From positions 228,542 through 292,541 of the forward strand of contig JAWKSL010000001.1 of NCBI GenBank assembly GCA_041389085.1: a stretch of 64,000 nucleotides of DNA. The letters are read 5' to 3'. This document shows, one piece after another, positions 1,893-44,127 of this stretch. Source of the DNA: Minisyncoccota bacterium (GTDB lineage Bacteria > Patescibacteriota > Minisyncoccia > UBA6257 > 1-14-0-10-44-23). The notes below the pieces were generated by a model, which searched no databases, was not told where the DNA came from, and worked only from the letters and a program-made list of their open reading frames with translations. Position 1 is the stretch's first letter, and every line of letters starts with the position of its first letter. Both the position numbers and the translations under genes were made by a program.

Positions 1893-1953
1893 GCTCGTCT
1901 ATTTATAGGGTAAGGATAGCCCAGAACTAATGCGTAAGGCAAAGCCTGGCTTT

Positions 1954-1987
1954 GCTCTAGAGCTAACTCTAGAGTTAGCTCTAGAGC
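1954..1987. repeat. palindromic element built on the CTCTAGAG core (cassette A 5' element)
   Basis: gctctagagctaactctagagttagctctagagc. A related perfect palindrome sits at 31244-31265 in the same position relative to a promoter and a small ORF. Confidence 0.6.
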
Positions 1988-2009
1988 AGTGTGTGGAGGC
2001 TTGGGTTTT

Positions 2010-2038
2010 TTGACAAAAATTTCTTTTTGTTTTATTTT
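2010..2038 (+). promoter_or_regulatory. sigma70-like promoter of cassette A
   Basis: TTGACA at 2010, 17-nt spacer, then tatttt. Confidence 0.4.
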
Positions 2039-2083
2039 TGGATAGAGAAAAGTGCCTTAAAAGGCGCTAGAAAGGAGGCCTTG

Positions 2084-2317
2084 ATGCGAAACTGCCTTGC
2101 GTACATTTCGCGGCACTGGGGAGAGCTCCTTCTGGCGCCCCTCCTCGGAGCTCTCAATCTGGTGTACGCGGCTCACCAGGATGTGCCGCCTTGGCTGCAC
2201 AAAGTGCTATGCATCCCGGGGTGTGTGATCCTCGCAATCCCTCTCGTCCTCATCGATGACCTCATCGTCTGGAAGAGAGAAAGAGCGCTCCAGAAGACTC
2301 TCGATGTCTTCAATTGA
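2084..2317 (+). CDS. small (77 aa) two-TM membrane protein, GC-rich (cassette A)
   Basis: SD aggagg sits 5 nt upstream of the ATG. The protein is hydrophobic and carries a PPWL motif. The 1991-start ORF upstream is a read-through of the promoter region. Confidence 0.55.
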   Translation: MRNCLAYISRHWGELLLAPLLGALNLVYAAHQDVPPWLHKVLCIPGCVILAIPLVLIDDLIVWKRERALQKTLDVFN

Positions 2318-2330
2318 GCTCCCCGCCTGA

Positions 2331-2368
2331 CCCCAGCGACTCGTAGTCGCTGGGGTTCAACTTTTTTG
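2331..2368 (+). terminator. conserved terminator hairpin (family shared with 31590-31626)
   Basis: ccccagcgactcgtagtcgctgggg followed by ttcaacttttttg. Confidence 0.7.
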
Positions 2369-2398
2369 TCTTGTTACGTAGCAAGCTAGGTAACATGC
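2369..2398. repeat. palindromic element TTGTTACGTAGCAAGCTAGGTAACAT (cassette A 3' element)
   Basis: Matches 24 of 26 positions to the element at 44101-44126 (reverse complement), which also lies just past a terminator of a small peptide gene. Confidence 0.55.
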
Positions 2399-2519: not shown

Positions 2520-4148
2520 CTATTTTCTTTGCTTTGCGGCTTTTATAAGCCCGCTAAAGAGTGGGTGTGGGCTTAGTGGTCGGCTTAGAAACTCTGGGTG
2601 AGCCTGAGTTGCTACAAAATATGGGTGGCCCTTTAACTCAATAAACTCCATAAGTTTCCCATTTGGAGATTTGCCTGAGAAAATAAGGCCTTTCTTTTCT
2701 ATCTGCTCTACATATGCGTTATTTACTTCGTAGCGGTGGCGGTGGCGCTCGATAACGCGTGGCTTTTTATACAAACTTTCGACAAGGCTTCCTTTTTTGA
2801 GCTTTGCTGGGTAGTTTCCAAGACGCATTGTCCCGCCATAGTGCTTCTTTGCGAGCTTTTCTTTTTGGCTTTCCATAACGTCTATTACTACGTGTGGAGC
2901 TTTCTTATCTATCTCTGCAGTGTGTGCGCCCTCAAGGCCGACTACGTTTCTCGCGAACTCTACAACTGCAAGTTGCATGCCGTAGCAAAGGCCAAGATAT
3001 GGGATCTTGTTTTCTCTACAGAACTTTATAACGTTTATTTTCCCCTCTATCCCCCTGCTTCCAAATCCTCCTGGCACGATTATTGCGTCGCACTTCTTAA
3101 GTTCTGCGAAGCTTGCCTTTTTGTTTTCAAAATCTGAACTATTAAGCCACCCTATTACTGGCTTAAGCTGCTTTTCATAGGCTGCGTGCTTTACCGCTTC
3201 GATAACAGAAATATATGAGTCGGTAAGAGTAAACTCTCCCGTAGCAAAATACTTCCCAACTATTCCTACCGTAACTTCGCCTTTTGGATTTTTAATGCGA
3301 GATACAAAACGGCGCCAATCTGAAAGGTTTGGTTTTCGTTTTCGTAAATTGAGCTTCTCTATTATTCGGTCTCCTAGGCCGTCGCGCTCAAAGTTGAGCG
3401 GAACTTCGTAAATACTGTCTACGTTTGGCGCTGAAATAACGTCTTGCCCTTGAAGGCCGCAGTTGAAGGCTATTTTCTCCTTTCGCACCTTGTCGAGCGA
3501 CACGTCTGCGCGCGCAATAATTATGTCTGGCTGAATTCCCACTGCGTTTGCTTGGCGTACTGCATTTTGAGTTGGCTTACTCTTAAGCTCTCCGTCCTTT
3601 TGCAACGGAAGAAAGCCAACTAAAACAAACAGGGCGTTTTGTGGGTTTTTAATTTTGAGCATTCTGTAAGCCTCAAGGAAAAGAATGTTTTGATACTCAC
3701 CTATTGTTCCTCCTACCTCTACTACAACAAAGTCGCTTTTGTGTTTTGCAGCACTCGCTTCGAGTTTGTCGATAACAAGCATTGGGATTTCTGGTACTAC
3801 ACTTACGCACTTTCCTTTGTATTCTAAGTTCCTCTCCTTTCTTATCATTTCAAGATAGAGAGAGCCTGTTGTCATATAGTCGCTGGTGTAGAGCTCAGTG
3901 TTTAGGAAGCGCTCGTAGTTCCCCATATCTTGGTCTGTTTCAAGACCGTCTGATAAAACAAAAACCTCACCGTGTTCGGTGGGGTTCATAGTTCCTGCAT
4001 CAACGTTTACGTACGGGTCTATCTTTATTGCGCTGACAGAAAATCCACGTGCTTGTAAAATTTTGGCTACTGAAGACGCGGTTATTCCTTTTCCGATTCC
4101 GCTCATCACTCCTCCGGCAACGAATATAAATTTGGTTGACTTATCCAT
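2520..4148 (-). CDS. pyrG: CTP synthase
   Basis: N-terminal KFIFVAGGVMSGIGKG and a C-terminal glutamine amidotransferase domain (GLCYGMQ). The likely start is MDKSTKFIFV. Confidence 0.9.
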   Translation of the reverse strand: MDKSTKFIFVAGGVMSGIGKGITASSVAKILQARGFSVSAIKIDPYVNVDAGTMNPTEHGEVFVLSDGLETDQDMGNYERFLNTELYTSDYMTTGSLYLEMIRKERNLEYKGKCVSVVPEIPMLVIDKLEASAAKHKSDFVVVEVGGTIGEYQNILFLEAYRMLKIKNPQNALFVLVGFLPLQKDGELKSKPTQNAVRQANAVGIQPDIIIARADVSLDKVRKEKIAFNCGLQGQDVISAPNVDSIYEVPLNFERDGLGDRIIEKLNLRKRKPNLSDWRRFVSRIKNPKGEVTVGIVGKYFATGEFTLTDSYISVIEAVKHAAYEKQLKPVIGWLNSSDFENKKASFAELKKCDAIIVPGGFGSRGIEGKINVIKFCRENKIPYLGLCYGMQLAVVEFARNVVGLEGAHTAEIDKKAPHVVIDVMESQKEKLAKKHYGGTMRLGNYPAKLKKGSLVESLYKKPRVIERHRHRYEVNNAYVEQIEKKGLIFSGKSPNGKLMEFIELKGHPYFVATQAHPEFLSRPLSPHPLFSGLIKAAKQRK

Positions 4149-5366: not shown

Positions 5367-5879
5367 GTGAAAGCTGCAATCCTTTGCCTTCTTGGCGCCC
5401 TTGTTGGCGTCTATCTCGTTGGTGTGCACGGCCTCCCTGCAACGAAGCTTGCGCACGTACTCGTGCTAGGAGGCATCGTCCTCGCGGCCGCTTTCTCTCT
5501 CCACTTTGCGACTCGTGCGAATTGCGGAGTGCCCATCTGCGACGATTCAGGCGATCCTCCGCTTGGCATTGTCGAGGTCGTTTCGGCTACGCGCGTTGAC
5601 TTTGATACTATGGGAGTCTTCATCAAGAAACCCAATGGAGAGTTTGATGAGCGCCTCTATCTTGAGGTGAATGAACGCTTGTTTGACCCCGCTATTAGTA
5701 AGTTCGCCCACCTTGAGTACCAGGCCCTACCCCACTCACTGACACCTCACTGGCGACGGCTTGCGCTCGTGAGCATCCCTGACGACCTCAGCACTGAGCC
5801 CATCGACTTTACTGAAGATGAGCCGGTGGCGCTCCCGCGGGCCGACAAGCCTCACGCTACCGCCCCTAAGGTGCCGTAG
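5367..5879 (+). CDS. hypothetical membrane-anchored protein, GC-rich (cassette C)
   Basis: GTG start preceded by ggagga; hydrophobic N-terminus; own terminator. No recognisable domain. Confidence 0.4.
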   Translation: MKAAILCLLGALVGVYLVGVHGLPATKLAHVLVLGGIVLAAAFSLHFATRANCGVPICDDSGDPPLGIVEVVSATRVDFDTMGVFIKKPNGEFDERLYLEVNERLFDPAISKFAHLEYQALPHSLTPHWRRLALVSIPDDLSTEPIDFTEDEPVALPRADKPHATAPKVP

Positions 5880-15678: not shown

Positions 15679-16788
15679 TTAGCTTTCAAGCGGCATTACG
15701 ATGTAAAACATTGAGTCGTCTCCTTGTGGTTTTATCATCGCTGGTTTTTGGGTTGAGTTTAGACTAAATACTATTTCTTCTTGTGAAATTGACTGAAGTC
15801 CTGCTAAAAGATAGCGCCAGTTAAAGGTTATTTCGTTTATATCTTTTCCTTCGCGCTTTACTGGGATTTTATAGTTATTTTCTCCAAGAGATTGAGTACT
15901 TGAATATATTTCTAGGAAATTTGTGTCTTCTTTTAGTGAAAGTTTCACCTCTGTTGTTTTCCCTGAAAAGCTACTTACTAGCCGCATAGCATTTATAAGC
16001 TCAGATCTGTCGATGTGGAGTGTTGTAGTGAAGTCTTTTGGAATTATTCCTTGATAGTCTGGGTACTCCCCACTAATTACGCGTGAGATAACACTACTAC
16101 TCTCTGACTCAAATAGAACTTGGTTTTCATCTTTCGCTATTGTTACCTCTTCGCTGTTTTCAAAAACTTTTATAACCTCATTTACTGTCATTAGAGGAAT
16201 AATCACTCTAAACCCTTCATCGAAAGTCGATTCAAAATCGGTATTGAGAAGGGTTTTTTCTGCGAGACGGAAGCTGTCGGTTGCTGCGAGCTTTAAAATT
16301 CCTATTTGATAGTCAAAAAGTATACCTGAGAGCTCTGGTTTAAGCTCTGAAATTTGCGCTGCGTTTATAACTTGTGAAATTGCTGACTTAAGAGTTTCTG
16401 TTTTTATCTTTATGTTTTTCTCGCGCTCCTCTATTTTAGGAATTATTGGAAACTCATCTGCTTTTAAGCCCTGAATCTTCGCTTCATAGTTATCGGTTTT
16501 CACATTTAAAACCTCTCCGTCTAGCTGGAGTGTTACTCTTTCTGACTGAGTGTTGTTTACGATGCTAAATAGTGGATGAAATGGAATTGTTATCTCCCCT
16601 GTTTCAACAACTTTGCATGCAGCTTTTGTTTTTATCGCGAGTTCAAGATTTGTACTCGTGATAGTAAGACTTTTATCTGCACTTAATAAAACATTTTTCA
16701 GTATTGGAAGGTTTGAATTTTGAGTTACTGCTCGTTCTGTTTTTATAAGAGCTGTTTTTAAATTGTCTTTAAGTATTATCAACTGCAT
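15679..16788 (-). CDS. dnaN: DNA polymerase III beta sliding clamp
   Basis: MQLIILKDNLKTALIKTERAVTQNSNLPIL... is a good match to DnaN N-terminus; 369 aa. Confidence 0.85.
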   Translation of the reverse strand: MQLIILKDNLKTALIKTERAVTQNSNLPILKNVLLSADKSLTITSTNLELAIKTKAACKVVETGEITIPFHPLFSIVNNTQSERVTLQLDGEVLNVKTDNYEAKIQGLKADEFPIIPKIEEREKNIKIKTETLKSAISQVINAAQISELKPELSGILFDYQIGILKLAATDSFRLAEKTLLNTDFESTFDEGFRVIIPLMTVNEVIKVFENSEEVTIAKDENQVLFESESSSVISRVISGEYPDYQGIIPKDFTTTLHIDRSELINAMRLVSSFSGKTTEVKLSLKEDTNFLEIYSSTQSLGENNYKIPVKREGKDINEITFNWRYLLAGLQSISQEEIVFSLNSTQKPAMIKPQGDDSMFYIVMPLES

Positions 16789-17011
16789 AGGTTTGGTTAT
16801 TTAAGTTAAAAAGAATAGTAGTTGTAGTAGGGCTTGTTAATTTGTGGATGAGTTAGTCGCAATGTTGATGAATACTAGTTTAAATTGCTGTTTGGGGTGT
16901 GGGTTTCTTGTGGGGAAAACCTTGGTGATTTTGTGAATAACTTTGGATGTTTTAATTTTCCTCCTTTTTTATCCCCACCACTATCCTCTCTATCAATAAT
17001 TTATACCCACC
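16789..17011. promoter_or_regulatory. candidate oriC segment (dnaA-dnaN intergenic) with DnaA-box-like 9-mers
   Basis: tgtggatga, ttatccccac and tgtgaataa are each 1-2 mismatches from TTATCCACA; an AT-rich tract (tatttaagttaaaaagaatag) is present. Confidence 0.5.
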
Positions 17012-18427
17012 TTATTCCTTGCCAATATGGTCTTTAATCAGCATTATCTTCTGATTTAAGACTTGGTTTTTCCCGACCTCTTTTGAAATCTTTTCATATG
17101 CATAAATTGCTGTTGTGTGGTCTCTTTTACCCATTTTTTCACCAATAGCTGGGTAACTAAGGTTTAGTAGGTCGCGAAGAAGGTACATAGCTATCTGACG
17201 AGGCTCTACAACCTCCTTTTTTCTACTCTGGCCGGTGATGTCGGTGAGAGACATATCAAAAGACTCAGCCACCGCTTTAATAAGGGCTTGAGGAGAGATG
17301 TTTTTAGTAGGTTCTTGAACTATTTCGTTGATAATTTCTTCCGCTATCTTCGGACTTATCTTGGTGTTTTTTATGTTTTGGTAAAAAGTGAGTCTGTTTA
17401 TCACCCCTTCAAGCTCTCGGAAGTTCTTCTGAATACGATTTGCGATAACCTGCACTACCTCATCAGAAAGATTTACCTGTTTTTCATCAAGCTTAGCTTT
17501 AAGAATTGCAAAACGAAGCTCGTAGTCTGGTGGAGCTATATCTACAATCATTCCCCCTTCGAATCGTGAGCGAAGACGCTCAGCGAGATCGGGCATAAAC
17601 TTCGGCGGCTTATCAGAAGATATGATTATCTGCTTATTGTTCTCGTAAAGGGCGTTAAAAGTGTGGAAAAATTCCTCCTCAGTTGAAGCCTTACCCATAA
17701 TAAACTGGATATCGTCGATTATAAGGAGGTCTACAAGGCGATATTTTTCTTTCATAGTGTCCATTCGCTTGTTACGAATAGCCCAAATAACGTCGTTAGT
17801 GAATTTTTCACTCGAAACATAACGAACCCTTACTGTATTGTTGTATTTTTTCTTAATCGCGTTACCAACGCCTTGAATAAGGTGGGTTTTCCCAAGCCCT
17901 ACTCCCCCGTAAATAAAGAGCGGGTTGTATTTTGTACCCACATTATCTACAACAGCGCTCGCTGCCGCGTGGCTGAGCTCATTTGCCTTTCCAACCACAA
18001 AAGAATCGAGTGTATAACGCGGATTGAGGTTTGTTTCTGGGTCGATTTTAAACTCAGGGAAGGCTTGTTGGTTGGCGCTTACTACTTGCTTAGCCTCTTT
18101 TGCTCTCTTCGCCTTAATTCTTTGTGCAAGTTTTGAGCTATGAACTACAAACTCGATTTTTGTGATCGTTCCATCGAGATTTCTTAGTGCTGCAAAAACA
18201 ATTTTTGAATATTTGTTTTCAATCCACTCCTTCGCAAAGGTGTTTGGGAGGGCAACAAACCCACAGTTATCTTTTTTCTCAATAAGTTGGGTGTTTTTAA
18301 ACCACGTAACAAAGTTTGGTTTAGAGATTTGCATTTCAATCTCAGCAAGCGCCTGATCCCACAACCCATTTAGGTCGGTGAGCTCTTTCTCTGCTGTTGT
18401 CTGGGCGCTTGTCTGTTTTGGTGACAT
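17012..18427 (-). CDS. dnaA: chromosomal replication initiator DnaA
   Basis: GGVGLGKTHL Walker A and a C-terminal DNA-binding domain. Confidence 0.9.
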   Translation of the reverse strand: MSPKQTSAQTTAEKELTDLNGLWDQALAEIEMQISKPNFVTWFKNTQLIEKKDNCGFVALPNTFAKEWIENKYSKIVFAALRNLDGTITKIEFVVHSSKLAQRIKAKRAKEAKQVVSANQQAFPEFKIDPETNLNPRYTLDSFVVGKANELSHAAASAVVDNVGTKYNPLFIYGGVGLGKTHLIQGVGNAIKKKYNNTVRVRYVSSEKFTNDVIWAIRNKRMDTMKEKYRLVDLLIIDDIQFIMGKASTEEEFFHTFNALYENNKQIIISSDKPPKFMPDLAERLRSRFEGGMIVDIAPPDYELRFAILKAKLDEKQVNLSDEVVQVIANRIQKNFRELEGVINRLTFYQNIKNTKISPKIAEEIINEIVQEPTKNISPQALIKAVAESFDMSLTDITGQSRKKEVVEPRQIAMYLLRDLLNLSYPAIGEKMGKRDHTTAIYAYEKISKEVGKNQVLNQKIMLIKDHIGKE

Positions 18428-20195: not shown

Positions 20196-21371
20196 TTAGT
20201 CTACCCAGGTTGTTATTCCCCCACTCTCTTTTATCTGATTGTAGGCTGTCTCTGTTTGATCCGAGCCATTACTGTATTGAGAAAACATCTGGTCTCTTCC
20301 CGCGAGATACCCAGCGCGCGACTGCTCTACCCATGGATGTGCAGTGTTGTCTGCTAAGTAACTTCTCTGTTCTATTTCAATGAGTTGGCGGGCCACCTGT
20401 TGAGGGGTTTCATTATTGCCCTGTGTTACCACTTCATTTACCACTCCCTCTCTCCTCATTTGGTAAAATTGCTGCTCGGCATACTCATTGAATCCTGTTG
20501 GGTATTCGCTGTTCGCCTCCTGCCATGAGATGTATCCATCTGCTTGGTAGGAAATACGGTTTCCTTCGCTAAAGTTGTATGGGTTTTGATAGTTTCCTGT
20601 ATCGAGGGCGCTTATTCTCTCGGAAAAATAATGAGCTCGAAGAGCGGGATATTGGTTGAATAGAGCTTCTTGCGCTGCGGCAAACGCTGCATAATTTTCT
20701 GAAGAGAGAATTGTAGACTCATCTCTTAGCATTCGTCGTGCGGCTTGAAGCGCCCTACGGTCATCGTTGAGGTTGAACTCGTGTTTATAGCCATTTATAT
20801 ATGACTCTGTTTGGTTCGCTTGTCTGCTCGCCTGTGAGTTTTGTATAGCTTCTAGCTCGGCATCTCTTGCCTCAGCATTTCTTTGCTCTCGCATAGCCTC
20901 GAGCTCACGAATTGGTTCATCTGAGCTCCCAATGTTTAATATGCGCGGATTAATAGTGTAAAGAAGCACAGCAGCTCCAATAAGAAGCACAAGGCCAATA
21001 ATAGCGTCGAATATCCACCCCTTTGCGTCTGCCTGCACAGCTGGCTTCCCTGCTGAAGCTACGTAGCGCACTCCGGCAAAAACAATAATCGCGAGAGCTA
21101 AAAGAGCTCCGATGCCAATAGCCCAGCGATAGATAATGTTTATGTAGTTTCCTAGTCCTTGATGTGCATTTACCGAACCACCTGTTCCTGGAATGTCTAC
21201 AATTAGGTCTACGGTTCCGTCTGGGGTAGTTTTTGCGGCGGCGTCTACAGCGTCAGCATTTGCTTCTTGTGGTGTGGCCTCATCCTCAGCAGAAACACTC
21301 GCCGTGAGTGGGGCTAGTGCGATTAGTCCTGCAAAAAGCGCAGCGAAGAATGTCTTAGTTTTTAGGCTCAT
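20196..21371 (-). CDS. secreted VirB2/TrbC-pilin-like domain fused to a ~240-aa Q/N/Y-rich C-terminal domain
   Basis: A signal peptide is followed by two hydrophobic helices (YINIIYRWAIGIGALLALAIIVFAGV and WIFDAIIGLVLLIGAAVLLY), as in conjugative pilins. The family is not certain. Confidence 0.4.
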   Translation of the reverse strand: MSLKTKTFFAALFAGLIALAPLTASVSAEDEATPQEANADAVDAAAKTTPDGTVDLIVDIPGTGGSVNAHQGLGNYINIIYRWAIGIGALLALAIIVFAGVRYVASAGKPAVQADAKGWIFDAIIGLVLLIGAAVLLYTINPRILNIGSSDEPIRELEAMREQRNAEARDAELEAIQNSQASRQANQTESYINGYKHEFNLNDDRRALQAARRMLRDESTILSSENYAAFAAAQEALFNQYPALRAHYFSERISALDTGNYQNPYNFSEGNRISYQADGYISWQEANSEYPTGFNEYAEQQFYQMRREGVVNEVVTQGNNETPQQVARQLIEIEQRSYLADNTAHPWVEQSRAGYLAGRDQMFSQYSNGSDQTETAYNQIKESGGITTWVD

Positions 21372-23076
21372 TGCTTAATTGTTGGGCGATTAACTCTTCT
21401 GGGTTTGTGGTTATTATCTCATGCTCTGGATAGGACGCTACTATTTGAATAGCAACGTGGTTTAGTCCGGCAAAGAATAGCCCTTGTCCCACCTCTCCTT
21501 CAAGGAGAAGTGATTTTTCTCCATCTGAAAGATCAAATGTCTTGGTGATAGTGTCTATCATCGCTGGTGATTGGCGCAGAAGCAGCTGGAGGCTTGAGTT
21601 TGTGATTATCGGGCGCCCGTATGGCGAGAGAAGAAAGTCTTCTACGTCTTGAGTAATAGTAGTTACCCCAAGGTAGTACTTGCGTGCTCGTTTTACGAGG
21701 CCAAATAGGAATGTTGCACTGTCTTGGTTTTTCATTAAGAGCCACGCTTCGTCGATAACAACAACGCGGCGCTTTAGCTTTGAGCGAATAACTGCCCAGA
21801 TGAAGTTAAGAATTACATACATCGCTATTGGGCGAAGCTCTTCTTCAAGGTCGCGAAGAGAAAATACAATCATGCGGTTTGCGATGTCGATGTTGGTAGC
21901 CTGGTTTGCAAACCCTGCAAAGCTACCTTCGGTAAAGCGGTAGAGTCTGTCTGCAAGCCCCTCCCCTCCTTCAAACCCACGCAAGACGTTTTCCAGGTCT
22001 TTTAATACTGGTGGCTCTGAGTTGCTAAAGTCTTTTCCTGGGATGATGTCGCGCGCTGCATATGTTTCAGTAATAGCGCGGTCGATAAGAGCCTCTTCTT
22101 CTGGGCTAATTTCCCCTACCATGAGGCGGATAAGGCCGGCGAGGTTTACAATGTGGCTGCGAAGAGTTTCTGCTGGATCGTCTCCTTCAGGAATAACTGG
22201 GATTTGAAATGGGTTGATGTGGTCTTTTGATGAAAGTGAAATTCTAAAGTAGCTTCCTCCAACTGCGCGTGTAAGGCGCTCATATTCGTTTTCAGGGTCT
22301 ACAACAAGCACGTCGGTGCCTGTCATTAGAAGGCGGAGAATTTCGAGCTTTGCAGCGTATGATTTTCCAGATCCAGACTTTGCAAAGATAACCATGTTTG
22401 CGTTTTCAAGCTTGAAGCGGTCGAAGATGATCAAGCTGCTGTTGTGGCGGTTTATTCCATATAGGATTCCTTCTTCACTTGTAAGGTTGAGAGAAACAAA
22501 TGGGAAAGAAGAGCTGAGCGGCCCTGAGTTTAGCGGTGTAGTTACTTGCAGCTGATCTTTTGCGGTTGGGAGCGTAGTGTTAAAGCCTTCTACTTGCTGG
22601 AAGAGTGCTGGCTTTGCGTATACAAGGCGGCTTTCAAGAAGATTGGTTATTTCTGACTCTACTTTCTTAAGCTCTTTTAGAGAGTCTGCGTACATCGTTA
22701 TATACACTGCTGATTGAAAAAGGTGCTCGCGCGATTGCTGAAGTGAGTCTCGGAGAGATTCTACATCTTGGTGTGCTGTTTCAAGGAGTGGGCTTCGAAT
22801 GAGGCCTTTTTCTTGTTGCTCGATAAGTTGCGCTTCTATCTGAGTAGCTTTACGGCGAAGTTTTTTGAGTGCGAGCGAAGTCTCAACAGGAGCTACATAT
22901 ATACCTATATCGAGTAGGCCTGGAAAATTTACAATTGGGCTAAACCACCCTGTTGCTAAGTAGCGTGGGTATGAAAATACGAAGATTGTTTTTGCGAACT
23001 TGTTTCCTATTTGAAGGTGGTCGCTGCTGAGCTTTATCGCTGCTGGAGCGATGATGTTTTTTATCTGTTCGTTCAT
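21355..23076 (-). CDS. virB4: VirB4/TrbE/CagE-family T4SS ATPase (C-terminal ATPase part)
   Basis: FAKSGSGKSYAAK Walker A and VVVIDEAWLL Walker B; 573 aa. Confidence 0.75.
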   Translation of the reverse strand: MNEQIKNIIAPAAIKLSSDHLQIGNKFAKTIFVFSYPRYLATGWFSPIVNFPGLLDIGIYVAPVETSLALKKLRRKATQIEAQLIEQQEKGLIRSPLLETAHQDVESLRDSLQQSREHLFQSAVYITMYADSLKELKKVESEITNLLESRLVYAKPALFQQVEGFNTTLPTAKDQLQVTTPLNSGPLSSSFPFVSLNLTSEEGILYGINRHNSSLIIFDRFKLENANMVIFAKSGSGKSYAAKLEILRLLMTGTDVLVVDPENEYERLTRAVGGSYFRISLSSKDHINPFQIPVIPEGDDPAETLRSHIVNLAGLIRLMVGEISPEEEALIDRAITETYAARDIIPGKDFSNSEPPVLKDLENVLRGFEGGEGLADRLYRFTEGSFAGFANQATNIDIANRMIVFSLRDLEEELRPIAMYVILNFIWAVIRSKLKRRVVVIDEAWLLMKNQDSATFLFGLVKRARKYYLGVTTITQDVEDFLLSPYGRPIITNSSLQLLLRQSPAMIDTITKTFDLSDGEKSLLLEGEVGQGLFFAGLNHVAIQIVASYPEHEIITTNPEELIAQQLSNEPKN

Positions 23077-23077: not shown

Positions 23078-23770
23078 CTAGGCGTTTGGTTGGTCTGTAG
23101 TTAAGACAAGACCTTTCTTTTCTATAGCCTCTGGGTTGTAGAGGTTGTAGAAAAGTTCAGTGGTTTCTTCGTCGTTGAGGGGTACTGCGCGAAGACCTAT
23201 CTGGTTTAGTGAAGACACTACTTCGTCAGTTCTTTGCTTGAGCTGACTCACGTATTCGCGAATGTTTTCGTCTCCTGATGTCTTTGTGAGAGGGTCGAGC
23301 TTATCCTTCGATATGAGTTTAAACAGTCCTCCAGCAGCCTTTTTGCCTGCTTGTGAGAGCTGCACTGGGTCGTATGGTACTACAACGAAGAACGATTTAT
23401 GCATGATAATGTTCTCGTTTACAAGGGTGCGGATAAACTCGCGATACTCTGCTATTTGTGTGCGAAGAAGCGGGTTTGGCTCCTTTACCTCTATTTGAGA
23501 AAGCCCTTCAATGTATCGGTCTACGTTTATCTTGCGTGAGTGTACGAAAATTTGAATTGGAAAGTCGAGTGAGTTGAGGAAGTTTTGATATCCAAATATA
23601 AGAGCCTCCTTCTCTTCTTCACTTTTTAGGTCGAAGTTTATACCAGAAACCATAACGATCTGGCGCAAAGCTCCGTTTTTAAGAATAGCTATACCATCCT
23701 TCACTTCTTTTACTTCAACAAACGATTGTGTTGGAAGTGACTGTTTTGGATTCACTTTTTCCTCTTGCAT
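23078..23770 (-). CDS. probable N-terminal domain of VirB4, encoded as a separate ORF
   Basis: Its stop (TAG) is 1 nt before the ATG of the ATPase ORF. 230 + 573 aa is about the length of a full VirB4. Confidence 0.4.
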   Translation of the reverse strand: MQEEKVNPKQSLPTQSFVEVKEVKDGIAILKNGALRQIVMVSGINFDLKSEEEKEALIFGYQNFLNSLDFPIQIFVHSRKINVDRYIEGLSQIEVKEPNPLLRTQIAEYREFIRTLVNENIIMHKSFFVVVPYDPVQLSQAGKKAAGGLFKLISKDKLDPLTKTSGDENIREYVSQLKQRTDEVVSSLNQIGLRAVPLNDEETTELFYNLYNPEAIEKKGLVLTTDQPNA

Positions 23771-23794: not shown

Positions 23795-24310
23795 CTAGCG
23801 ATAATCGACGCGCTTGTATACGCGGCGTTCACCAGTAAGCTTTCTTTGTACTTCGAACTGCTCTACTGGCTCTTTAATTCGGTTAAATATCTTTAATCCC
23901 CCCTTCTCTCTTAACTTTATTGGCTGAGTTGTGGTGTTGAGCTTATCCCAAAGGTTTTCGAGCGGTTTTATCTGAGCTTCTTTCTCGCGAACCACCTTTA
24001 TATCAGGAAGGTTTGGAAGAAGTTCCTTTGTTTCTTCTTTTTTCCAAATATAAAACTTCGGTTGCCAGGTGAATTTGACTGCTGAAACGAGCAAGATAAT
24101 AAACGGGCGGCCATTTACCTTTATAAATGCAAAAGAGCTGGCAAGTGTGCCAACTACTACGGTGATTATAAGCCAGAGCCAGAGTTCAAAAAGGAAGAAA
24201 AAAAGAAAACTCGCGAGAGCTGCTATTGCGATGTAGATAAACTGCTTGAGCGTAAGAGGCCCAACTATCTTGTCTTCTATTTCGATAAATTGAGGTACTT
24301 GGAACTGCAC
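23795..24310 (-). CDS. PrgI/VirB3-like small membrane protein
   Basis: Two N-proximal TM helices (FIYIAIAALASFLFFFLF / LWLIITVVVGTLASSFAF) and a position next to VirB4. Confidence 0.45.
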   Translation of the reverse strand: MQFQVPQFIEIEDKIVGPLTLKQFIYIAIAALASFLFFFLFELWLWLIITVVVGTLASSFAFIKVNGRPFIILLVSAVKFTWQPKFYIWKKEETKELLPNLPDIKVVREKEAQIKPLENLWDKLNTTTQPIKLREKGGLKIFNRIKEPVEQFEVQRKLTGERRVYKRVDYR

Positions 24311-24334
24311 AAAATTAGAGTTAAGAGGTAAGAA

Positions 24335-24721
24335 TTAAGAATTAAGAGTTTTGGTCTTTTTTATCAACCCATTTAGTAGTTTACTACATTCAATCGCCAT
24401 GTCTGCTAGGTTTTTAAAACCATTTTCTTTTATATGTCCTAAGTCTCTAGCTATAAGTAGTTGGCTTTGTAGTTCAGTTAGAGACCCTAAGCTCATAGAG
24501 TAAAAATGCTGCCTGTCTTTCGGGGAGTGCCTACTAAAGCCCTCTGCTATATTTGAACATGTAGACACCGAGGCTCTTCTCATTTGGCTTGTAAGTGTAA
24601 ACATCTCTTCTTTCGGGAAAGCCGATGTGGCTTTGTATATTGCTAAGGTCAGCGAATGACATCTCCTCCACGCGATAAGGTCTGTGAACGATTTAATTTT
24701 CCCTGTGTTTTCTTTTTTCAC
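24335..24721 (-). CDS. four-helix-bundle protein (23S rRNA intervening-sequence protein / Avd-like family)
   Basis: 128 aa; the ...AEGFSRHS...FYSMSLGSLTELQSQL pattern is typical of this family. Confidence 0.7.
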   Translation of the reverse strand: MKKENTGKIKSFTDLIAWRRCHSLTLAIYKATSAFPKEEMFTLTSQMRRASVSTCSNIAEGFSRHSPKDRQHFYSMSLGSLTELQSQLLIARDLGHIKENGFKNLADMAIECSKLLNGLIKKTKTLNS

Positions 24722-24753
24722 TCTTACGTCTTATCTCTAAACTCTCGCTTCTA

Positions 24754-25590
24754 TTATTTCGGTAAGTTGTCTTTGTCTCCTAATATTGTTCTAAATGCGC
24801 TGTAGTGCACTACTTTTGGCTCTTCGTGCCTACTTTCAACCCTGCCTGGCTGCACCTGGGCTTCATTTTTATTTATGCCCTTAAAGAAGCTTCCGAAGCG
24901 GGCTTTTTCTTGCGGAGCTTGTTCTTGCTTCTGGGGTTGGCTTGCTGAGTGTGGGAGCTCAAAGCGAAACGCAGGGCCCGCGCTTTCTGCCGAAGGCTGC
25001 TTTGGTGCCTCTTCGTGAAGCATAAAAGGTTTCTCGGTTGTTTGCTGGTTTGTGTCGCTCTTTAAGTCTGGCTTTTGTGGTTGCTGCTTTGGCGCAAGGT
25101 CCGGCACAACACTTCCTTGTGCTGGTGTGGCTTGTCCTTCCAGCTGGGTTGTTGGTGCTGAGTCGGCTAAAGATCCTTTTCTTGCTTGCGCAAAGGCTGA
25201 AATAGAAGGCTTCTGTTGCGAAAGTGAATCTACTCCCCCTCTCGGTGTACTGATTTTTTCTATATCAACGCCCTGTACTGTTTTTAGGCCGATTGTAATC
25301 GGTGCCAGTACTTTATCTTTCAATATTGCTGCAATTTCTCCTGCTTTGTCTTCAGATATCTTTAAATCAGTAGCAAGCGCCTTTGTGAAGGCTTCTGGCG
25401 GGGTTAGCGTGAGTACGAGGCGCGTAATGTCGCGCGCGATTACAGGTAGGCGCTCTCCAAAAAACTGGTTTTCCTTGTTGATGTGTTCGATGACTTCTAC
25501 CACTCGGTCTGAAGTAAGCCAGTTCTTAATAGCCTCTGGAAGAAGGTAGAAAGTTTTTTGAGCTGTTTGTTGGCTAGAGAGAATATCCAT
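24754..25590 (-). CDS. hypothetical protein, Q/P-rich low-complexity C-terminal half
   Basis: ORF only; lies inside the T4SS-like cluster. Confidence 0.3.
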   Translation of the reverse strand: MDILSSQQTAQKTFYLLPEAIKNWLTSDRVVEVIEHINKENQFFGERLPVIARDITRLVLTLTPPEAFTKALATDLKISEDKAGEIAAILKDKVLAPITIGLKTVQGVDIEKISTPRGGVDSLSQQKPSISAFAQARKGSLADSAPTTQLEGQATPAQGSVVPDLAPKQQPQKPDLKSDTNQQTTEKPFMLHEEAPKQPSAESAGPAFRFELPHSASQPQKQEQAPQEKARFGSFFKGINKNEAQVQPGRVESRHEEPKVVHYSAFRTILGDKDNLPK

Positions 25591-25592
25591 CT

Positions 25593-28079
25593 TTAAGTGT
25601 AGCTTTGGTGTGTGTCTGCTCCTGCGTTATAATTTTGTTTTTTTGAGGATGGCTTTTGACCGGCCCCTGGGTCTCCTGGTGTTTGCATTAGTTTGTGCCA
25701 AGCCACTACCATGTCGCGGTCTTGTGTTAATTTCGCGATCTGCTCCTTCTGCTGCTTGCTGTCACCCCCCTGAGAGCGAATGGCGTTTATCTGGGTTTGT
25801 ATTTGAGCAGCGGCTGCTTCAGGACTTGCAGTTTGCCAGCTACCCTTTCCAAGACTTTCTTCTATAGCCTGTATCCAAGCCTCTTGTGTTGATGCTTTTG
25901 CATTCATTATCATCGCAGTTGCGCCTCTTACCTTCATGGCTTGTGCCAAGGCATATTTCTGCGCTGTATCGCCTAGGTCTTTAATAGGAAGATCGGCGAT
26001 CTTCTTTGCATCCAAGGATTCAAAGATACCTTTAATGATTTTATTTTCCGCCTCGGTGAGGTCGCTAGGCATGTCATTGCGTGCTTTTGCAAGGAATCCT
26101 TTAGCAATTTTGCGACTCTCTTTCTGGTCTTCAGTGCGAGCTTTTGTATTTTTATCCTTGAGCGCTTTCGCTATAGCCGCAAATTCAGGGTCCTTTTCGG
26201 AGAGCCCTCGAGCGATACTTTCTGCTAACTGTACACTTCCATTTGCGTAAGCGGCCTCAAGAAGTGCTTTTTTGTTCTTAAAGCTACTATCTCCGCTCGC
26301 TGCGCCCACATCGCTAAGAGCATTTGTTTTCGACAGGAGCATGCCAAGTGCAGCTTTTTCTTTGCTCGACATGGTGTCAATCTTGCTGAGCATGTCGAGA
26401 GCCTCTGGTTTTGATTTATCTTTATATTGATCGTTGAAGAACTTTAGGGTTGCCTCCTGGCTTGCCTTTTCTCCAAACGGAATAGATTTCTTTCCTACCG
26501 CGAAGTCTTCGGTCCACGCAAGCTTATCTTCTGCTATTTTTGGAATGTCTTTTAGGCGCGACTTTGAATCGAGGACTTCCCCTAGGGCTTTGCGCGGTGC
26601 AGCGGAAATTTTTCCTGCCCCCTTACCGAACCGTGCTATACCGCTTCCTACTGTTGCGAGTTTGTTAAATCCAAACTTAGAACCGGCTGCCCCAAGCCCC
26701 GATCCAATACCGGCAACAGCACCGGTGCTTGTTGCTTCAAATGCCTTTAAGGTTCCCCGCGTTGCTCCTCCTAGACCAACCTTACCAAGTGTTTTTGGTA
26801 TGCGTGAGCCGATAAATGCGCCGACTCCAAATGCGAGGCCTGCGCCCATAACTCCTCCAGCCTTTCCTGCCTTCATGGCTGCCCAAAGGAGCCCGAGAAG
26901 GACGAGGATTTGCATAACGTTGTTAAAGAAGTCGGTTCCGAGTAGTCCTCCGCTTCGTGAAGTGACGAGCATGGTACTAATCGCGAGGAAGACAAAGAAG
27001 GTTACCGTTGGTAGATAAATAAGCCACTTTATAAAGTTGTCCCACCACTTCTTTTGATATTCGCTTAGGCGAGGAATGAGTCCGAGTGCCCATACGAGTG
27101 GCATAAATATGAGAAGCGTTGCTATCCAAATGTTTCGCACAAGGACCATAATTCCAATTGCAACAAGGACCCCTGCCATAAGCCAGGTGATGATGTCGGC
27201 AAGAATCAGAGCTTGTACAAGTTTAAACCACACCGACCAACCTGTTTCGTCATTGTTTATATTGAATTTTAAGTCTTTACCGAGTTTAAATGCCTCTTCG
27301 TCTTCTACAAGTCCGCTTGATACCTTTGTGCCTTCATCGTTTAGCTTCACCGACTTATACTCAAAGTCCCCTGCATTTTTAATGCTTAGCAAACTTTGAG
27401 GTTGAAGCGCACCTCCGATTTTATCCGGGTGGATAGATTGGAGGAAGTTTGCTGTAAGTACATTTGATACATCGATAAATAGCCCAGCAATGAGGAAGCT
27501 GAAGTTTACGAGAATAGCTGCGAAGATGAGGCGTTTAAGTTGATTTTTGATATTGTAGCTCTTGCTTCGAAGCATGGTGCCAAAAGCCATAACGATTATG
27601 GCGATGACGAAGAAGAGGTTTGTAAGACTAAGGCTTACTTTAAAGCCGGCGGTGATTATCGGTAGCGTGATGATCGTGATTCCATACTTCACCATTGTGT
27701 ACACCATCCATGATCCAAAAGTGAGGATAAGTGCCCCTATTTTACCCACGAGGCTTAAGAAGAGCATGGTCACCGACTTAAAGCCAACCAAGATCCAGCA
27801 GTAGACGTCTGTTACTGATTTATCGCACTGGCCATACTTAATGTCGATACCTTCAAGATCAAAAAATCCATTCCCTTCTCCTATGCCAGGTACTGATGTC
27901 CCCGCAAAGTCTGCTGCTGAGGGTGGGTTGATGTTTGCACTTGCAGATGCTCCCTCCTCAGTTTCGTCATCTGCGAGCGCAACATTCACCCATGGTGTTG
28001 AAATAGGCAGGAGCGACAGTAGCACAAGCGCGATCATCGCTGCGGCAAATATTTTTTTTGTGATTTTTTTAGCTAGCAT
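25593..28079 (-). CDS. polytopic membrane protein, VirB6/TrbL-like, with long hydrophilic C-terminal extension
   Basis: Signal sequence, six or more TM helices, and cluster context. Confidence 0.5.
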   Translation of the reverse strand: MLAKKITKKIFAAAMIALVLLSLLPISTPWVNVALADDETEEGASASANINPPSAADFAGTSVPGIGEGNGFFDLEGIDIKYGQCDKSVTDVYCWILVGFKSVTMLFLSLVGKIGALILTFGSWMVYTMVKYGITIITLPIITAGFKVSLSLTNLFFVIAIIVMAFGTMLRSKSYNIKNQLKRLIFAAILVNFSFLIAGLFIDVSNVLTANFLQSIHPDKIGGALQPQSLLSIKNAGDFEYKSVKLNDEGTKVSSGLVEDEEAFKLGKDLKFNINNDETGWSVWFKLVQALILADIITWLMAGVLVAIGIMVLVRNIWIATLLIFMPLVWALGLIPRLSEYQKKWWDNFIKWLIYLPTVTFFVFLAISTMLVTSRSGGLLGTDFFNNVMQILVLLGLLWAAMKAGKAGGVMGAGLAFGVGAFIGSRIPKTLGKVGLGGATRGTLKAFEATSTGAVAGIGSGLGAAGSKFGFNKLATVGSGIARFGKGAGKISAAPRKALGEVLDSKSRLKDIPKIAEDKLAWTEDFAVGKKSIPFGEKASQEATLKFFNDQYKDKSKPEALDMLSKIDTMSSKEKAALGMLLSKTNALSDVGAASGDSSFKNKKALLEAAYANGSVQLAESIARGLSEKDPEFAAIAKALKDKNTKARTEDQKESRKIAKGFLAKARNDMPSDLTEAENKIIKGIFESLDAKKIADLPIKDLGDTAQKYALAQAMKVRGATAMIMNAKASTQEAWIQAIEESLGKGSWQTASPEAAAAQIQTQINAIRSQGGDSKQQKEQIAKLTQDRDMVVAWHKLMQTPGDPGAGQKPSSKKQNYNAGADTHQSYT

Positions 28080-29536
28080 GAGAATATTTTGCTATCGATA
28101 TAGTCGTCTGCCTGGTTGTATGAAGCTTGAGCTTCCATCTTTTTGCTTTGTACGAGTGGTGGAGTTGCAAGTGAGCCTATTTCTACCTGAAGGCGAACAA
28201 TCTCTCTCCATGCACTTGCCCCTTCGTCGGTGCTTAGCTCTTCTATTTCTACTTTGTAGGCTTCAAGCGATTGAATGTCAGCGAGGATAGAAGCATCTTT
28301 TGCTGCAAGGATGGCGATGTTTGCCTGCACGGCTTCTCTTTCATCGTCTACATCGCAAATGCTTTGCTTACCATCAAGGTCGTCGTCGTAGTCTTCCCAA
28401 AGTGCTTTTTCTGCACGCACAATTTCAACCATCTCTTCGTAGAGGGCGATGCTTGCGTCTATGTTTGCTACCATGTCTTCTTTTGCATTCTCAAACGGCG
28501 CGCCAATACTTGTTTGGTAAGCTTGGCAGGCTGCGAGCGCGTCTGAGCTTAGACCTGAGCACGGATTTGCATTTGTATTTACAAAGTCTGCACCGCGGTT
28601 GTCGTTTCGGCTAAGGCCACGAAGCCCTTCTACTCCGGTGCGTACAAGACGGTTGAAGAGCGCGTTCGCTATAGCTCCCGCGTATTCTGAAAGTTGGTCT
28701 GCATTTACGATAAAGTCGAAGTCTATTCCTACTGCATCCTTCACGAGATCGCCCACCACTGATCCTGGGGTGGTAATTGTACACTTTACGTCTCCTGGTA
28801 TACCGTCTCCGTCTATGTCTGGGCCGGTGCCTCCTTCCTCTTGGCAACTTTTTGTTCCGATAAATCCATCTCCAGCTCGGGCGTCTTCAAGCGCGGTGAA
28901 CTGAGCGGCAGATATTCTTCTGTGCTTCTCTTCCTCTAATAGAATGTAGCTACCAAAGATATTGTTTTGCGGCTCCCATGCAGCTTGGTAAGCAACCCAA
29001 CTTCCGTTTTCAAAGTCGGCGTAGAAGTTTTCGATATTTCCAACTATGTCGTCGAGCGTACATCTTGCTTGGTTTTGGAAGCGAGACTCTGGTGCGAGTG
29101 CAATTCGTAGCTGCGCGCTAAATGGGCTGCAGAGAAAGCCGAGCCCTATTTCTTGCGCCAAATCTCCCACTGCTTGGCTAGCGATGTCGTCAAGAAATGC
29201 GCTCCAGTCGGTTACGAAGCGTGGTTCGTCTCCTCCGTTTATCCATTGAATAATGTCGTCTACCATCATGTCTAAAAGACGCTTTTTGAGCGTCTCGAGG
29301 ATAAATGACTGAGCCCATTCAAAGCTTTGTTGAGTCGTTTCTGCCGTTGTCGCTGCTGCGATTGTTGCGATACTTCCGTCTATTGATGGAAGGCTACTGA
29401 TAAAGTCGAGGTGTCCGCCTACTACGTGTACGGTGAGCGCTTGGGCCTTTTGTGGCTTGAGAGTGAGAGAAAGTGGCGCAAGCGTAGCTACTACGAGAAG
29501 AGTGGCAGTAAGTTTTTTAAGTGTTTCAAAATTCAT
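28073..29536 (-). CDS. secreted hypothetical protein (T4SS-cluster associated)
   Basis: Signal peptide MNFETLKKLTATLLVVATLAPLS; no recognisable domain. Confidence 0.35.
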   Translation of the reverse strand: MNFETLKKLTATLLVVATLAPLSLTLKPQKAQALTVHVVGGHLDFISSLPSIDGSIATIAAATTAETTQQSFEWAQSFILETLKKRLLDMMVDDIIQWINGGDEPRFVTDWSAFLDDIASQAVGDLAQEIGLGFLCSPFSAQLRIALAPESRFQNQARCTLDDIVGNIENFYADFENGSWVAYQAAWEPQNNIFGSYILLEEEKHRRISAAQFTALEDARAGDGFIGTKSCQEEGGTGPDIDGDGIPGDVKCTITTPGSVVGDLVKDAVGIDFDFIVNADQLSEYAGAIANALFNRLVRTGVEGLRGLSRNDNRGADFVNTNANPCSGLSSDALAACQAYQTSIGAPFENAKEDMVANIDASIALYEEMVEIVRAEKALWEDYDDDLDGKQSICDVDDEREAVQANIAILAAKDASILADIQSLEAYKVEIEELSTDEGASAWREIVRLQVEIGSLATPPLVQSKKMEAQASYNQADDYIDSKIFSC

Positions 29537-30309
29537 TAGAATGTGATGCCGTTGTCCTCGATGTATTTATTCATTTGGTTTGAAAGTGTGATGAACTCAT
29601 CGTCTACCGAGTCTGCAAAATCGAGTGCGAGGAGTGCCTGAAGCGGATCGGTCTGATAGTTTGCGAGGAGCGCATATATGTTTCGCTGCGTAAGAAAGAG
29701 CTCTATAAGGTTTGCGTGAAACCCTGAGATAACGCGCGGAACAGGGAGTGCGTATAAATCGGCGATAATTTTTTCGTAGGTGCTTACAAACACTGGGAAG
29801 TTTGTCGCTTCGGGTTTTTCATAGTTTATAGACAGCCCTTTAAGGTTTTTCTTTATTAGGCTGTTCATTTCTTCAAAGTAGTCGGCTTGCGCCTCCTTGT
29901 CTGAAGTAGAGGTAAAAACTATTTGACCCTCATCTACCTTCCCGCGTAGCGCACTTGCATCAAATTCTTCAATAGCTTTTTGAAGAGTGGTTGCTACAAG
30001 CTGGTCTGGGTCTATCGCTGCGATCTGTGCGCCGCTCTCAGTCTGGAGTGGTCCGTCTGGGTTTTTGTCGACAAGATCTTTCGCAAGTGCCTTGCTTATC
30101 TCTTGTGTTAAGTTCCCATCAGTCGGACTCTTTACTGAGTTGAGGCTTTCAACGGTAGAAAAGCTTGGGACTTTTACTATTTCAGTCTCAATTATTTCTT
30201 TGTCGCCAAAGGCCCATACTGTTGCGGCAAACACAAGACACAAAGCAATCAAGGCGGTAAGAGTTGCCTTTAAAATTCGCTTTGCTGATACCTGGTTAGT
30301 CTGCAACAT
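29536..30309 (-). CDS. membrane-anchored hypothetical protein (T4SS-cluster associated)
   Basis: N-terminal TM helix; its start overlaps the stop of the next ORF. Confidence 0.3.
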   Translation of the reverse strand: MLQTNQVSAKRILKATLTALIALCLVFAATVWAFGDKEIIETEIVKVPSFSTVESLNSVKSPTDGNLTQEISKALAKDLVDKNPDGPLQTESGAQIAAIDPDQLVATTLQKAIEEFDASALRGKVDEGQIVFTSTSDKEAQADYFEEMNSLIKKNLKGLSINYEKPEATNFPVFVSTYEKIIADLYALPVPRVISGFHANLIELFLTQRNIYALLANYQTDPLQALLALDFADSVDDEFITLSNQMNKYIEDNGITF

Positions 30310-31163: not shown

Positions 31164-31243
31164 AAGAGTTTAGAGATAAGAGTTACGACGTAAGAATAGC
31201 TCATAACGAAGCCTAAAGGCAAAACTTTGCGTTGCTCTAGAGT

Positions 31244-31265
31244 TAACTCTAGAGCTTAATATAGA
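31244..31265. repeat. perfect 22-bp palindrome gctctagagttaactctagagc (cassette B 5' element)
   Basis: Homologous to 1954-1987, including upstream context (aaggcaaa...ttgctctagag). Confidence 0.6.
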
Positions 31266-31300
31266 GCAGTAGTGCGCGAAGAGTTATTTCTTGACAATAA

Positions 31301-31329
31301 GGCTAATTTATTTTATTCTCTTGGCAGAG
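31301..31329 (+). promoter_or_regulatory. sigma70-like promoter of cassette B
   Basis: TTGACA, 17-nt spacer, tattct. Confidence 0.45.
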
Positions 31330-31356
31330 CGATGGTGCTCTTGAGGAGGTGTTGGG

Positions 31357-31605
31357 ATGTTCCGATCCACCACCTATTTGCTTCTCCTCGGCTTCTCTCT
31401 TGTTGGAGGGGCTGCGGTCATGACAGCTCTTCTGATGGTCAGCCTTGCGCTGACCGCGCACCTGCCGCCATGGCTTGAACTCGCGGCTCGCCTCGCGCTG
31501 GTTTTCTCAGTGCTGCGCTGGGCAGGCCCGGCCCTCGGGAGGCTTCTCATTCCGATGTTCCGAGCTTACATTTCAGCTCGGAACGCCAACCCTAGCGACT
31601 TGTAG
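31357..31605 (+). CDS. small (82 aa) membrane protein, GC-rich (cassette B), weak paralog of 2084-2317
   Basis: SD gaggagg; hydrophobic; shares an AHxPPWL motif with the cassette A protein. Confidence 0.5.
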   Translation: MFRSTTYLLLLGFSLVGGAAVMTALLMVSLALTAHLPPWLELAARLALVFSVLRWAGPALGRLLIPMFRAYISARNANPSDL

Positions 31606-31626: not shown

Positions 31627-31680
31627 ATAATCTGATGGCAAAAAACACCCGAATTAATTCATAATTAATTCGGGTGTTTT

Positions 31681-44126: not shown

Positions 44127-44127
44127 G

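Follow-up and report, generated by a model that had tools for sequence, protein, structure and literature searches.

A candidate moron-like transcription unit for a lineage-restricted membrane peptide between pyrG and a holA-like gene of a Minisyncoccota bacterium

Morons, as conceived by Hendrix and Juhala, are reportedly independent units of promoter, gene and terminator that lie between two genes which are adjacent in related temperate phages. Analysis of a 64,000-nucleotide stretch of a Minisyncoccota genome (assembly GCA_041389085.1, contig JAWKSL010000001.1; hereafter the window, to whose numbering all coordinates refer) identified a chromosomal locus of comparable layout, termed cassette A. 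Like a moron, cassette A is dispensable by the comparison given below and has, at the level of sequence, its own promoter and its own terminator around a single gene. Its composition is distinct from that of its neighbours (GC content at third codon positions, GC3, of 0.69 versus approximately 0.44), and it is situated between genes that are adjacent in relatives (46 nt apart in a sister species and 115 nt in a distant relative). Unlike a moron, it does not reside in a phage: it is embedded in a block of core genes on the chromosome, close to the probable replication origin, shows no phage similarity, is oriented against both neighbours and brings a putative outward promoter for the downstream host gene. 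Cassette A is interpreted here, with a probability of roughly 0.6, as a dispensable, lineage-restricted, moron-like accessory transcription unit that encodes a fast-evolving orphan membrane peptide. It would then be one among several GC-rich, foreign-looking single-gene inserts of this genome and no new kind of system.

Species-specific orphan genes provide a second comparison. In a large survey of gut species, the GC content of orphan genes was close to that of conserved genes (Vakirlis and Kupczok 2024, PMC11293555). The gene in cassette A resembles such orphans in being small, in having no homologue outside its lineage and in being absent from the sister species; unlike them, it has a GC3 approximately 25 points above that of the core genes and a different translation signal. 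This GC3 excess, not seen in the surveyed orphans, suggests that the gene came from outside the core genome.

Cassette A was located on the plus strand of the gap (1893-2519) between two minus-strand genes, a gene for a 252-aa protein (1134-1892, ATG at 1892) and pyrG (2520-4148, stop codon 2520-2522; CTP synthase, named from the annotation of the metagenome-assembled genome, MAG), and is thus antisense to both. A preliminary description of the locus had listed the orientation, two palindromes, a promoter, a Shine-Dalgarno (SD) site, an open reading frame (ORF) and a terminator; all were found where it had placed them, and its observations are correct in every particular, while the interpretation that it attached to them is half right. 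Its designation of the first neighbour as holA was backed by a match to the Pfam family DNA_pol3_delta, which remained below threshold (E 0.008, 16.6 bits versus a cut-off of 21). Because the match was sub-threshold, the gene is here called holA-like; its product is 100% identical to NCBI R3B52_01320, 'MAG: hypothetical protein [Candidatus Paceibacterota bacterium]'.

Palindrome P1 (1953-1988) comprises three CTCTAGAG palindromes with a 12-nt period and lies between two divergent promoters. The promoter of the mini-gene, TTGACA-17 nt-TATTTT (2010-2038), matches the consensus at 10 of 12 positions. With the transcription start placed from the position of its -10 element, a 39-nt 5' leader (2045-2083) is predicted, in which a 7-bp hairpin (2051-2068) precedes the SD site AAAGGAGG (2071-2078), whose GGAGG ends 5 nt before the ATG at 2084. 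ORF A (2084-2317) encodes a 77-aa orphan, predicted to be a helical-hairpin membrane peptide. It is followed by an intrinsic terminator, T (2329-2367), consisting of a 13-bp stem (2329-2357; 8 of 13 pairs G-C), CAAC and six T residues. Downstream of T, an imperfect 26-nt palindrome of the TTGTTACGTAGC type, P2 (2371-2396), is continued by an extension hairpin TGCTCCT..AGGAGCA (2396-2419), P2 and extension together spanning 2371-2419. The remaining sequence up to the pyrG stop codon (2420-2519) is a lineage-specific spacer with no counterpart in the sister species or elsewhere.

GC contents at the first, second and third codon positions of ORF A were 0.65, 0.36 and 0.69, compared with a GC3 of approximately 0.42-0.49 for the long core ORFs of the window. 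The codon periodicity of ORF A, expressed as GC3 minus GC2, was exceeded in none of 5000 shuffles (p = 0.0002). These results bear out the earlier proposal of a self-contained transcription unit of deviant composition. Hydropathy analysis and an AlphaFold model (pLDDT, the predicted local distance difference test, of 68, i.e., low-to-moderate confidence) placed helices at residues 2-31 and 39-76 of peptide A, with the loop QDVPPWL between them; the C-terminal tail is charged. Both of the transmembrane helices that had been proposed were thereby recovered, the first of them being hydrophobic only to a moderate degree.

A second unit of the same design, unit B (31190-31634, plus strand), was found between the minus-strand genes uvrD and rsmA. 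It comprises the rsmA promoter module with a copy of P1, a TTGACA-17-TATTCT promoter (31291-31319), a GAGGAGG site, an ORF of 82 aa with a GC3 of 0.68 (31357-31605, plus strand) and a copy of terminator T (31588-31616). The terminators of A and B are identical at 34 of 36 nt (94%; B copy 31589-31624), and the two ORFs are only approximately 45-50% identical in DNA. A block CAC-C..TGCCGCCNTGGCT shared by the ORFs encodes the motif AH-x(0-2)-[VL]PPWL between the helices, and the similarity of the two peptides beats 99% of shuffles (p approximately 0.01). Peptide B has the architecture of peptide A, with a helix, an AH..PPWL loop, a helix and a basic tail, and the order of parts in the two units is identical. 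These results indicated that A and B, as old paralogues, form a single orphan family that evolves fast, in which the regulatory ends were conserved and the peptides diverged except for AH..PPWL. An old duplication is plausible given that another orphan of the window, a 170-aa protein, has already fallen to 54% amino-acid identity between sister species.

Parts of cassette A recur in the window as had been described, the P1 module and terminator at B and P2 at a third unit, C. The preliminary description is right in placing A in a small, modular, duplicated mini-gene family of deviant composition, with at least B, identical in part order, as a paralogue; the upstream module is a core-gene promoter. 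A possible third copy of the terminator (46541-46569) contains only the 3' half (TCGCTGGGGTTCC) without a partner arm, and was taken as chance or a remnant. In 185,579 GTDB species representatives, which do not include the source genome, the terminator pattern had a single match, in a Thiotrichaceae MAG, as expected by chance for 20 bases. As an observation on the surroundings of unit B, a VirB4-like conjugal-transfer ATPase is split there into two ORFs (21355-23073 and 23078-23767) and adjoined by five large ORFs without a family assignment (23795-30306, minus strand); the region is a possible locus for type IV secretion or DNA uptake.

Neither unit was present in a sister species, contigs of which were reached in Logan assemblies SRR23004066, SRR23004074 and SRR23004075 via cluster mates of window proteins. 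Nucleotide identity between the sister species and the window was 86-94%, and core genes showed synonymous divergence (dS) of 0.40-0.92 and ratios of non-synonymous to synonymous divergence (dN/dS) of 0.02-0.10. At site A, two independent contigs of the sister species contained, after the pyrG stop codon, only TTCAGC, TGTTACGTAGCAAGCTACGTAACA (corresponding to P2) and TGCTCCGTAGCAAAAG before the holA-like ATG, 46 nt in total, with no P1, promoter, ORF or terminator. At site B, the uvrD stop codon was followed by 36 nt, P1 with the rest of its module and the rsmA GTG, with no mini-gene and no terminator. Compact junctions were also observed in distant relatives, in which the holA-like protein was 42-52% identical (pyrG-115 nt-holA-9 nt-rpsT, and fpg-1 nt-holA). 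Units A and B are thus presence/absence differences between sister species, and unit C, the gene for the 170-aa orphan and a gene with an HD domain are common to both. Peptide A appears to be dispensable, given that the sister species does without it. An independent assembly (SRR32608987, 99.6% identical) showed that such GC-rich inserts are not assembly chimeras.

The sister species also has P2 together with its 3' extension, TGCTCC..AGCAA, in the 46-nt spacer that holds no cassette. In the window, the segment formed by P2 and extension is inverted relative to that in the sister species. This inversion and the extra 100 nt (2420-2519) indicate that the rearrangement at site A was no simple insertion. 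Elsewhere along the compared contigs, the sister species is approximately 290 nt longer than the window between a gene for a 171-aa orphan and fpg (sister contig L029, 2974-3353).

The palindromes had been described as bracketing the cassette, a view that did not hold, as P1 and P2 both stand without a cassette in the sister species. The 20-nt pattern of P1 gave 7 matches in the window, where 0.01 were expected, and P1 as RNA forms a 16-bp hairpin (-27.1 kcal/mol, z -5.9). Together with 45 further upstream nucleotides, P1 forms an 81-nt stretch (1910-1990) that recurs at 31190-31270 with 78% identity over 81 nt. The window thus contains two copies of P1, the second at 31233-31268 on the 3' side of uvrD, and two of P2, the second being perfect (44101-44126); P2 lies 0-6 nt past the stop codons of fba and, in the sister species, of pyrG. 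Nineteen metagenome stretches contained a 21-nt core of P1. About half of these were intergenic and in unrelated low-GC contigs resembling those of the candidate phyla radiation (CPR); the other matches were coding coincidences. Intergenic copies were typically 0-33 nt from the 3' end of a gene, between convergent genes, or beside the 3' end of a tRNA gene, and one had A and T runs on either side, like a bidirectional terminator. In viral contigs, P1 had one match, at chance level, and P2 and terminator T had none. Because P1 and P2 occur without a cassette in the sister species and are located at gene ends, they are regarded as generic gene-end hairpins of the clade and not as cassette termini.

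In this respect, P1 and P2 resemble repetitive extragenic palindromic (REP) sequences and bacterial interspersed mosaic elements, which are likewise short repeated palindromes at gene 3' ends or between genes, and P1 also occurs in other CPR-like genomes. Such elements are characterised by a high copy number and an associated REP-associated tyrosine transposase (RAYT); P1 and P2 have two copies each in 64 kb, and no RAYT was seen among the ORFs scanned. The likeness concerns the surroundings of the mini-gene rather than the mini-gene itself.

The 45-nt stretch beside P1 has, on the minus strand, the layout TTGCCT-18-TATYCT and points away from the mini-gene; the same layout precedes rsmA, in the sister species as well as in the window. 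At site A, this stretch provides a candidate outward promoter of core type for the holA-like gene (1913-1942, minus strand), with a -35 element TTGCCT (1937-1942), an 18-nt spacer and a -10 element TATCCT (1913-1918) that lies inside the motif GCTATCCTTA. The motif GCTATYCTTA has five exact copies in the window, where by our own estimate approximately 0.24 would be expected. All five are on the minus strand (1911-1920, 23680-23689, 31191-31200, 33522-33531 and 52908-52917), and four are followed, at a distance of 20-45 nt, by the start of a minus-strand gene, namely the holA-like gene, rsmA, uvrD and a gene starting near 52868. GCTATYCTTA is probably the -10 region of the core promoters of this organism, and its presence upstream of several core genes indicates that the 45-nt module is a promoter of the genome's own type, although its activity at site A is predicted from sequence. 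Comparison with the sister species indicates that P2 is part of an ancestral spacer after pyrG and that P1 with the adjacent 45 nt is part of the ancestral region upstream of rsmA. At site A, neither P1 nor the outward promoter is ancestral; both came, or were kept, together with the mini-gene. The homology between A and B extends past P1 into the mini-gene promoter (GTGYGYGRAG..TTGACAA).

Cassette A appears to belong to a wider class of GC-rich genes preceded by SD sites. Unit C (44101-44365, minus strand) has a promoter, a GGAGG site, its own terminator (44137-44161), P2 (44101-44126) and a GC-rich ORF for a hydrophobic 52-aa peptide (44145-44303, minus strand). Four further GC-rich genes each have their own terminator: the HD-domain gene (500-1096), the 170-aa orphan (5367-5879), D, an 87-aa membrane orphan (35021-35284), and E, which encodes a 70-aa excisionase-like protein of the HTH_17 family (37594-37806, minus strand). 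Similarity of peptide A to peptides C and D was not significant. GGAGG or AGGAG was found 4-8 nt before the start in six of six cases, A, B, C, D, E and the 170-aa gene (starts at 2084, 5367, 31357, 35021, 37806 on the minus strand and 44303 on the minus strand). By comparison, exact look-up confirmed the called starts of six core genes (1892, 4148, 31163, 33501, 43216 and 44391), none of which had an SD site, and SD-like pentamers before near-full-length core ORFs were almost absent across the window. In composition and translation signals, these genes would point to an origin outside the core genome. Just upstream of D, an inverted repeat CCTCTCCTTCCTTA ... TAAGGAAGGAAGAGAAGG (34770-34940) encloses approximately 130 nt.

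Comparison of the shared members of this class with the sister species yielded a dN/dS of 0.21 at 77% identity for the HD-domain gene and a dN/dS of 0.41 for the 170-aa gene, with dS in both cases like that of the neighbouring genes. These results indicated that the shared members are real, fast-evolving coding genes. Unit C (44125-44365) was 97-100% identical to its counterpart in the sister species, where it is called as a gene (contigs L031, 4222-4500, and L032, 1312-1600), and its flanking genes fba and folA were 85-93% identical, with a dS of 0.05 for C versus approximately 0.47 for the neighbours. This similarity fits either recent exchange between species or a constraint at the nucleotide level. 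In distant relatives whose holA-like protein was 42-44% identical, SD-led orphan ORFs with a GC3 of 0.68-0.76 were found beside the holA-like gene (contig L004, 5618-5905, minus strand; contig L007, 7775-8080 and 8209-8646), so the class of GC-rich orphans is not confined to the species of the window. Next to C, the C-terminus of folA differs from that of the sister species at approximately 44732, and thyA, dcd, the dCMP deaminase gene and tmk are missing in the window (44732-48428). The replacing stretch is 3.7 kb without long ORFs and includes a block of 60% GC (45832-46529) and a further, diverged folA-like fragment (47205-47507, minus strand).

The neighbourhood of cassette A consists of rpsT, pyrG, fpg, ruvB, dnaN and dnaA. 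The last two genes lie at 15679-18424, close to the minimum of the cumulative GC skew near 16 kb, which together indicate that the window probably contains the replication origin. Farther downstream, the gene for tRNA-Pro (59746-59817, minus strand) is accompanied by a perfect 52-nt direct repeat (59532-59583 and 59709-59760) that consists of the tRNA 3' end plus 38 nt and flanks a GC-rich insert of 125 nt (59584-59708). It looks like a duplication of attachment-site (att) type left by an integrative element.

Among alternative explanations, a mobile cassette is unlikely, although several observations agree with it. According to this explanation, blocks of promoter, ORF and terminator would move between sites and species with the P1 and P2 hairpins as recombination targets. 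The presence/absence polymorphism of A and B between sister species, the copy at A of a module native to the rsmA site, the inversion of P2 with its extension, the near-identity of C between more divergent flanks, the other GC3-rich, SD-led orphans beside the holA-like gene of distant relatives, and the att-like duplication around another GC-rich insert at tRNA-Pro would all be in line with such movement. However, the ORFs scanned, which lie in the first 40 kb of the window, included no integrase, transposase or RAYT, A has neither a target-site duplication nor terminal inverted repeats, P1 and P2 are unrelated sequences that also occur without any cassette, and the terminator pattern was at chance level in the representative genomes and absent from viral contigs. 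Searches of phage and plasmid collections revealed no similarity to A, nor viral relatives of the HD-domain and HTH genes, and only two or three units were present in 64 kb.

Two described types of mobile element were also considered. A miniature inverted-repeat transposable element does not account for cassette A, whose palindromes P1 and P2 are unrelated and which has no flanking direct repeat. An integron cassette likewise contains a single small ORF followed by an imperfect palindrome and is modular, with variable members; unlike it, A has its own promoter, no attC organisation of R''/R', no integrase among the scanned ORFs and no array. P2 as an attC site was rejected, its GTT..AAC arms being in the wrong order.

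It is also improbable that cassette A encodes a toxic membrane peptide, similar to type I toxin-antitoxin (TA) toxins or to holins and pinholins, which would be kept in check by antisense transcription, for example by read-through from pyrG. Type I TA systems such as Hok/Sok, TisB/IstR, Ibs/Sib and Fst share with A a short intergenic gene for a hydrophobic peptide, a strong terminator, a structured mRNA and the occurrence in multiple copies, and the charged C-terminal tail of peptide A is compatible with such a role. As A is convergent with pyrG, an antisense RNA is plausible and could be supplied by pyrG read-through, and the nucleotide conservation of C is as expected of overlapping constraints on sense and antisense transcripts. 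In contrast, a consensus scan of the strand opposite A, B and C and of its immediate flanks found no promoter-like site, and no antisense RNA gene was detected. With two helices and 77-82 aa, the peptides exceed the usual length of type I toxins, to which they show no sequence relationship. In the local fold of the leader, the SD site of A was not clearly occluded and appears accessible. There was no match to PADLOC, PHROGs or Pfam, no endolysin or phage genes are nearby, and the sister species, which lost or never had A, shows no visible addiction signature. The default reading of peptide A is a small protein of the inner membrane that is non-essential and no toxin.

Several results weigh against the interpretation of cassette A as an accessory unit for a membrane peptide. 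Unit A, like B and C, is absent from the MAG annotation produced by the NCBI Prokaryotic Genome Annotation Pipeline (PGAP). Exact look-ups showed that this annotation includes the HD-domain gene, the holA-like gene, pyrG, the 170-aa gene, D, E, rsmA, uvrD, fba and folA, and that the accessions of the flanking genes are consecutive at the three gaps (MEZ4156604/605, 632/633 and 645/646), which means that nothing is annotated in the gaps of A, B and C. No homologue of A was found outside the window, so its coding status would rest on intrinsic signals and one distant paralogue. Exact look-up retrieved no record of peptide A, and a word-indexed search of peptides A and B against 5.8 billion proteins gave no match. 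A full HMMER pass of peptide A over 1.84 billion cluster representatives gave no true homologue, its sole match, a 2147-aa protein, being rejected because 27 weak tandem repeats sum to a spurious E-value; Pfam, PHROGs, PADLOC and the PDB had no match for peptide A either. The SD site of A may also go unused in its host, an anti-SD motif having been detected in only 48% of Parcubacteria (Tsurumaki et al., PMC9297842) and the 16S rRNA gene lying outside the window. Furthermore, the terminator (94%) and upstream module (78%) of A and B are far more conserved than the ORFs, a pattern that would also fit an element whose ends, and not its protein, matter. Finally, the uvrD-rsmA spacer of the sister species keeps a stretch TTGAAT..AGGG that resembles the -35 region of B, which would fit a loss of B in that species rather than a gain in the window.

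Some of these points would also be accounted for if the GC-rich island of 330 nt were a structured small RNA or a decaying insert with an incidental ORF, to which only a slight chance is given. Such an island would explain the missing annotation and homologues and the conservation of a non-coding terminator rather than of the ORFs; both predicted transcripts fold far better than shuffled controls (z -4.5 for A and -4.2 for B), and the chance of an open frame of 78 codons at 57% GC, by our own estimate approximately 0.06 per frame, is not negligible. Much of the folding z-score is, however, due to the terminator and leader hairpins, and in Rfam only tRNAs scored above threshold, with no family at cassette A; sub-threshold matches of microRNA models to the palindrome were rejected, as they arise with any perfect hairpin. 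The strong three-base periodicity confined to the frame of ORF A, the placement of its ATG 5 nt past GGAGG, the open frame of like length and architecture in B despite more than 50% nucleotide divergence, and the frames of C, the HD-domain gene and the 170-aa gene, which are open in both species with dN/dS below 1, all argue for a coding unit. The roles suggested in the preliminary description, a type I toxin, an effector or a miniature mobile module, are unsupported, though not refuted, in view of the lack of an antisense promoter, a family match, terminal repeats, a target duplication or a recombinase in the scanned ORFs.

If cassette A is an accessory transcription unit, its near-consensus sigma-70 promoter would drive an abundant monocistronic mRNA of approximately 320 nt with a short leader, a 5' hairpin and a strong SD site, which would end at the strong terminator and be translated to a 77-residue two-helix peptide of the inner membrane. 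Its insertion antisense to both neighbours would break a probable pyrG-holA co-transcript, as suggested by the 46-nt spacing in the sister species. P1, a 16-bp hairpin in minus-strand RNA, and the outward promoter, which now precede the holA-like start codon by 17 nt, would insulate the holA-like gene and presumably re-start its transcription. Terminator T and P2 would end the transcripts that converge from the mini-gene and pyrG. A bolder proposal is that a pool of GC-rich, SD-led mini-genes is exchanged between species and inserts beside P1 and P2 without a recognisable recombinase, each member bringing a replacement promoter. This proposal is doubtful; if true, it would describe a cassette-type mechanism of gene flow specific to CPR genomes whose own genes use no SD sites.

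Taken alone, cassette A would be one more unannotated gene for an orphan small protein in a CPR genome, and its value lies in the surrounding pattern. Its case suggests that a promoter which rescues the downstream gene can arrive with the very insertion by which an operon is split. More generally, one tiny genome appears to contain two classes of genes, a core of low GC3 without SD sites and GC-rich orphans with SD sites, consensus promoters and strong terminators. The presence of the latter class differs between sister species, and divergence in its member C is one tenth of that in the neighbouring genes. Should this two-class pattern prove genome-wide, it would help to identify genes that Parcubacteria have imported recently and would also test the use of SD sites by ribosomes that are often reported to lack an anti-SD sequence.

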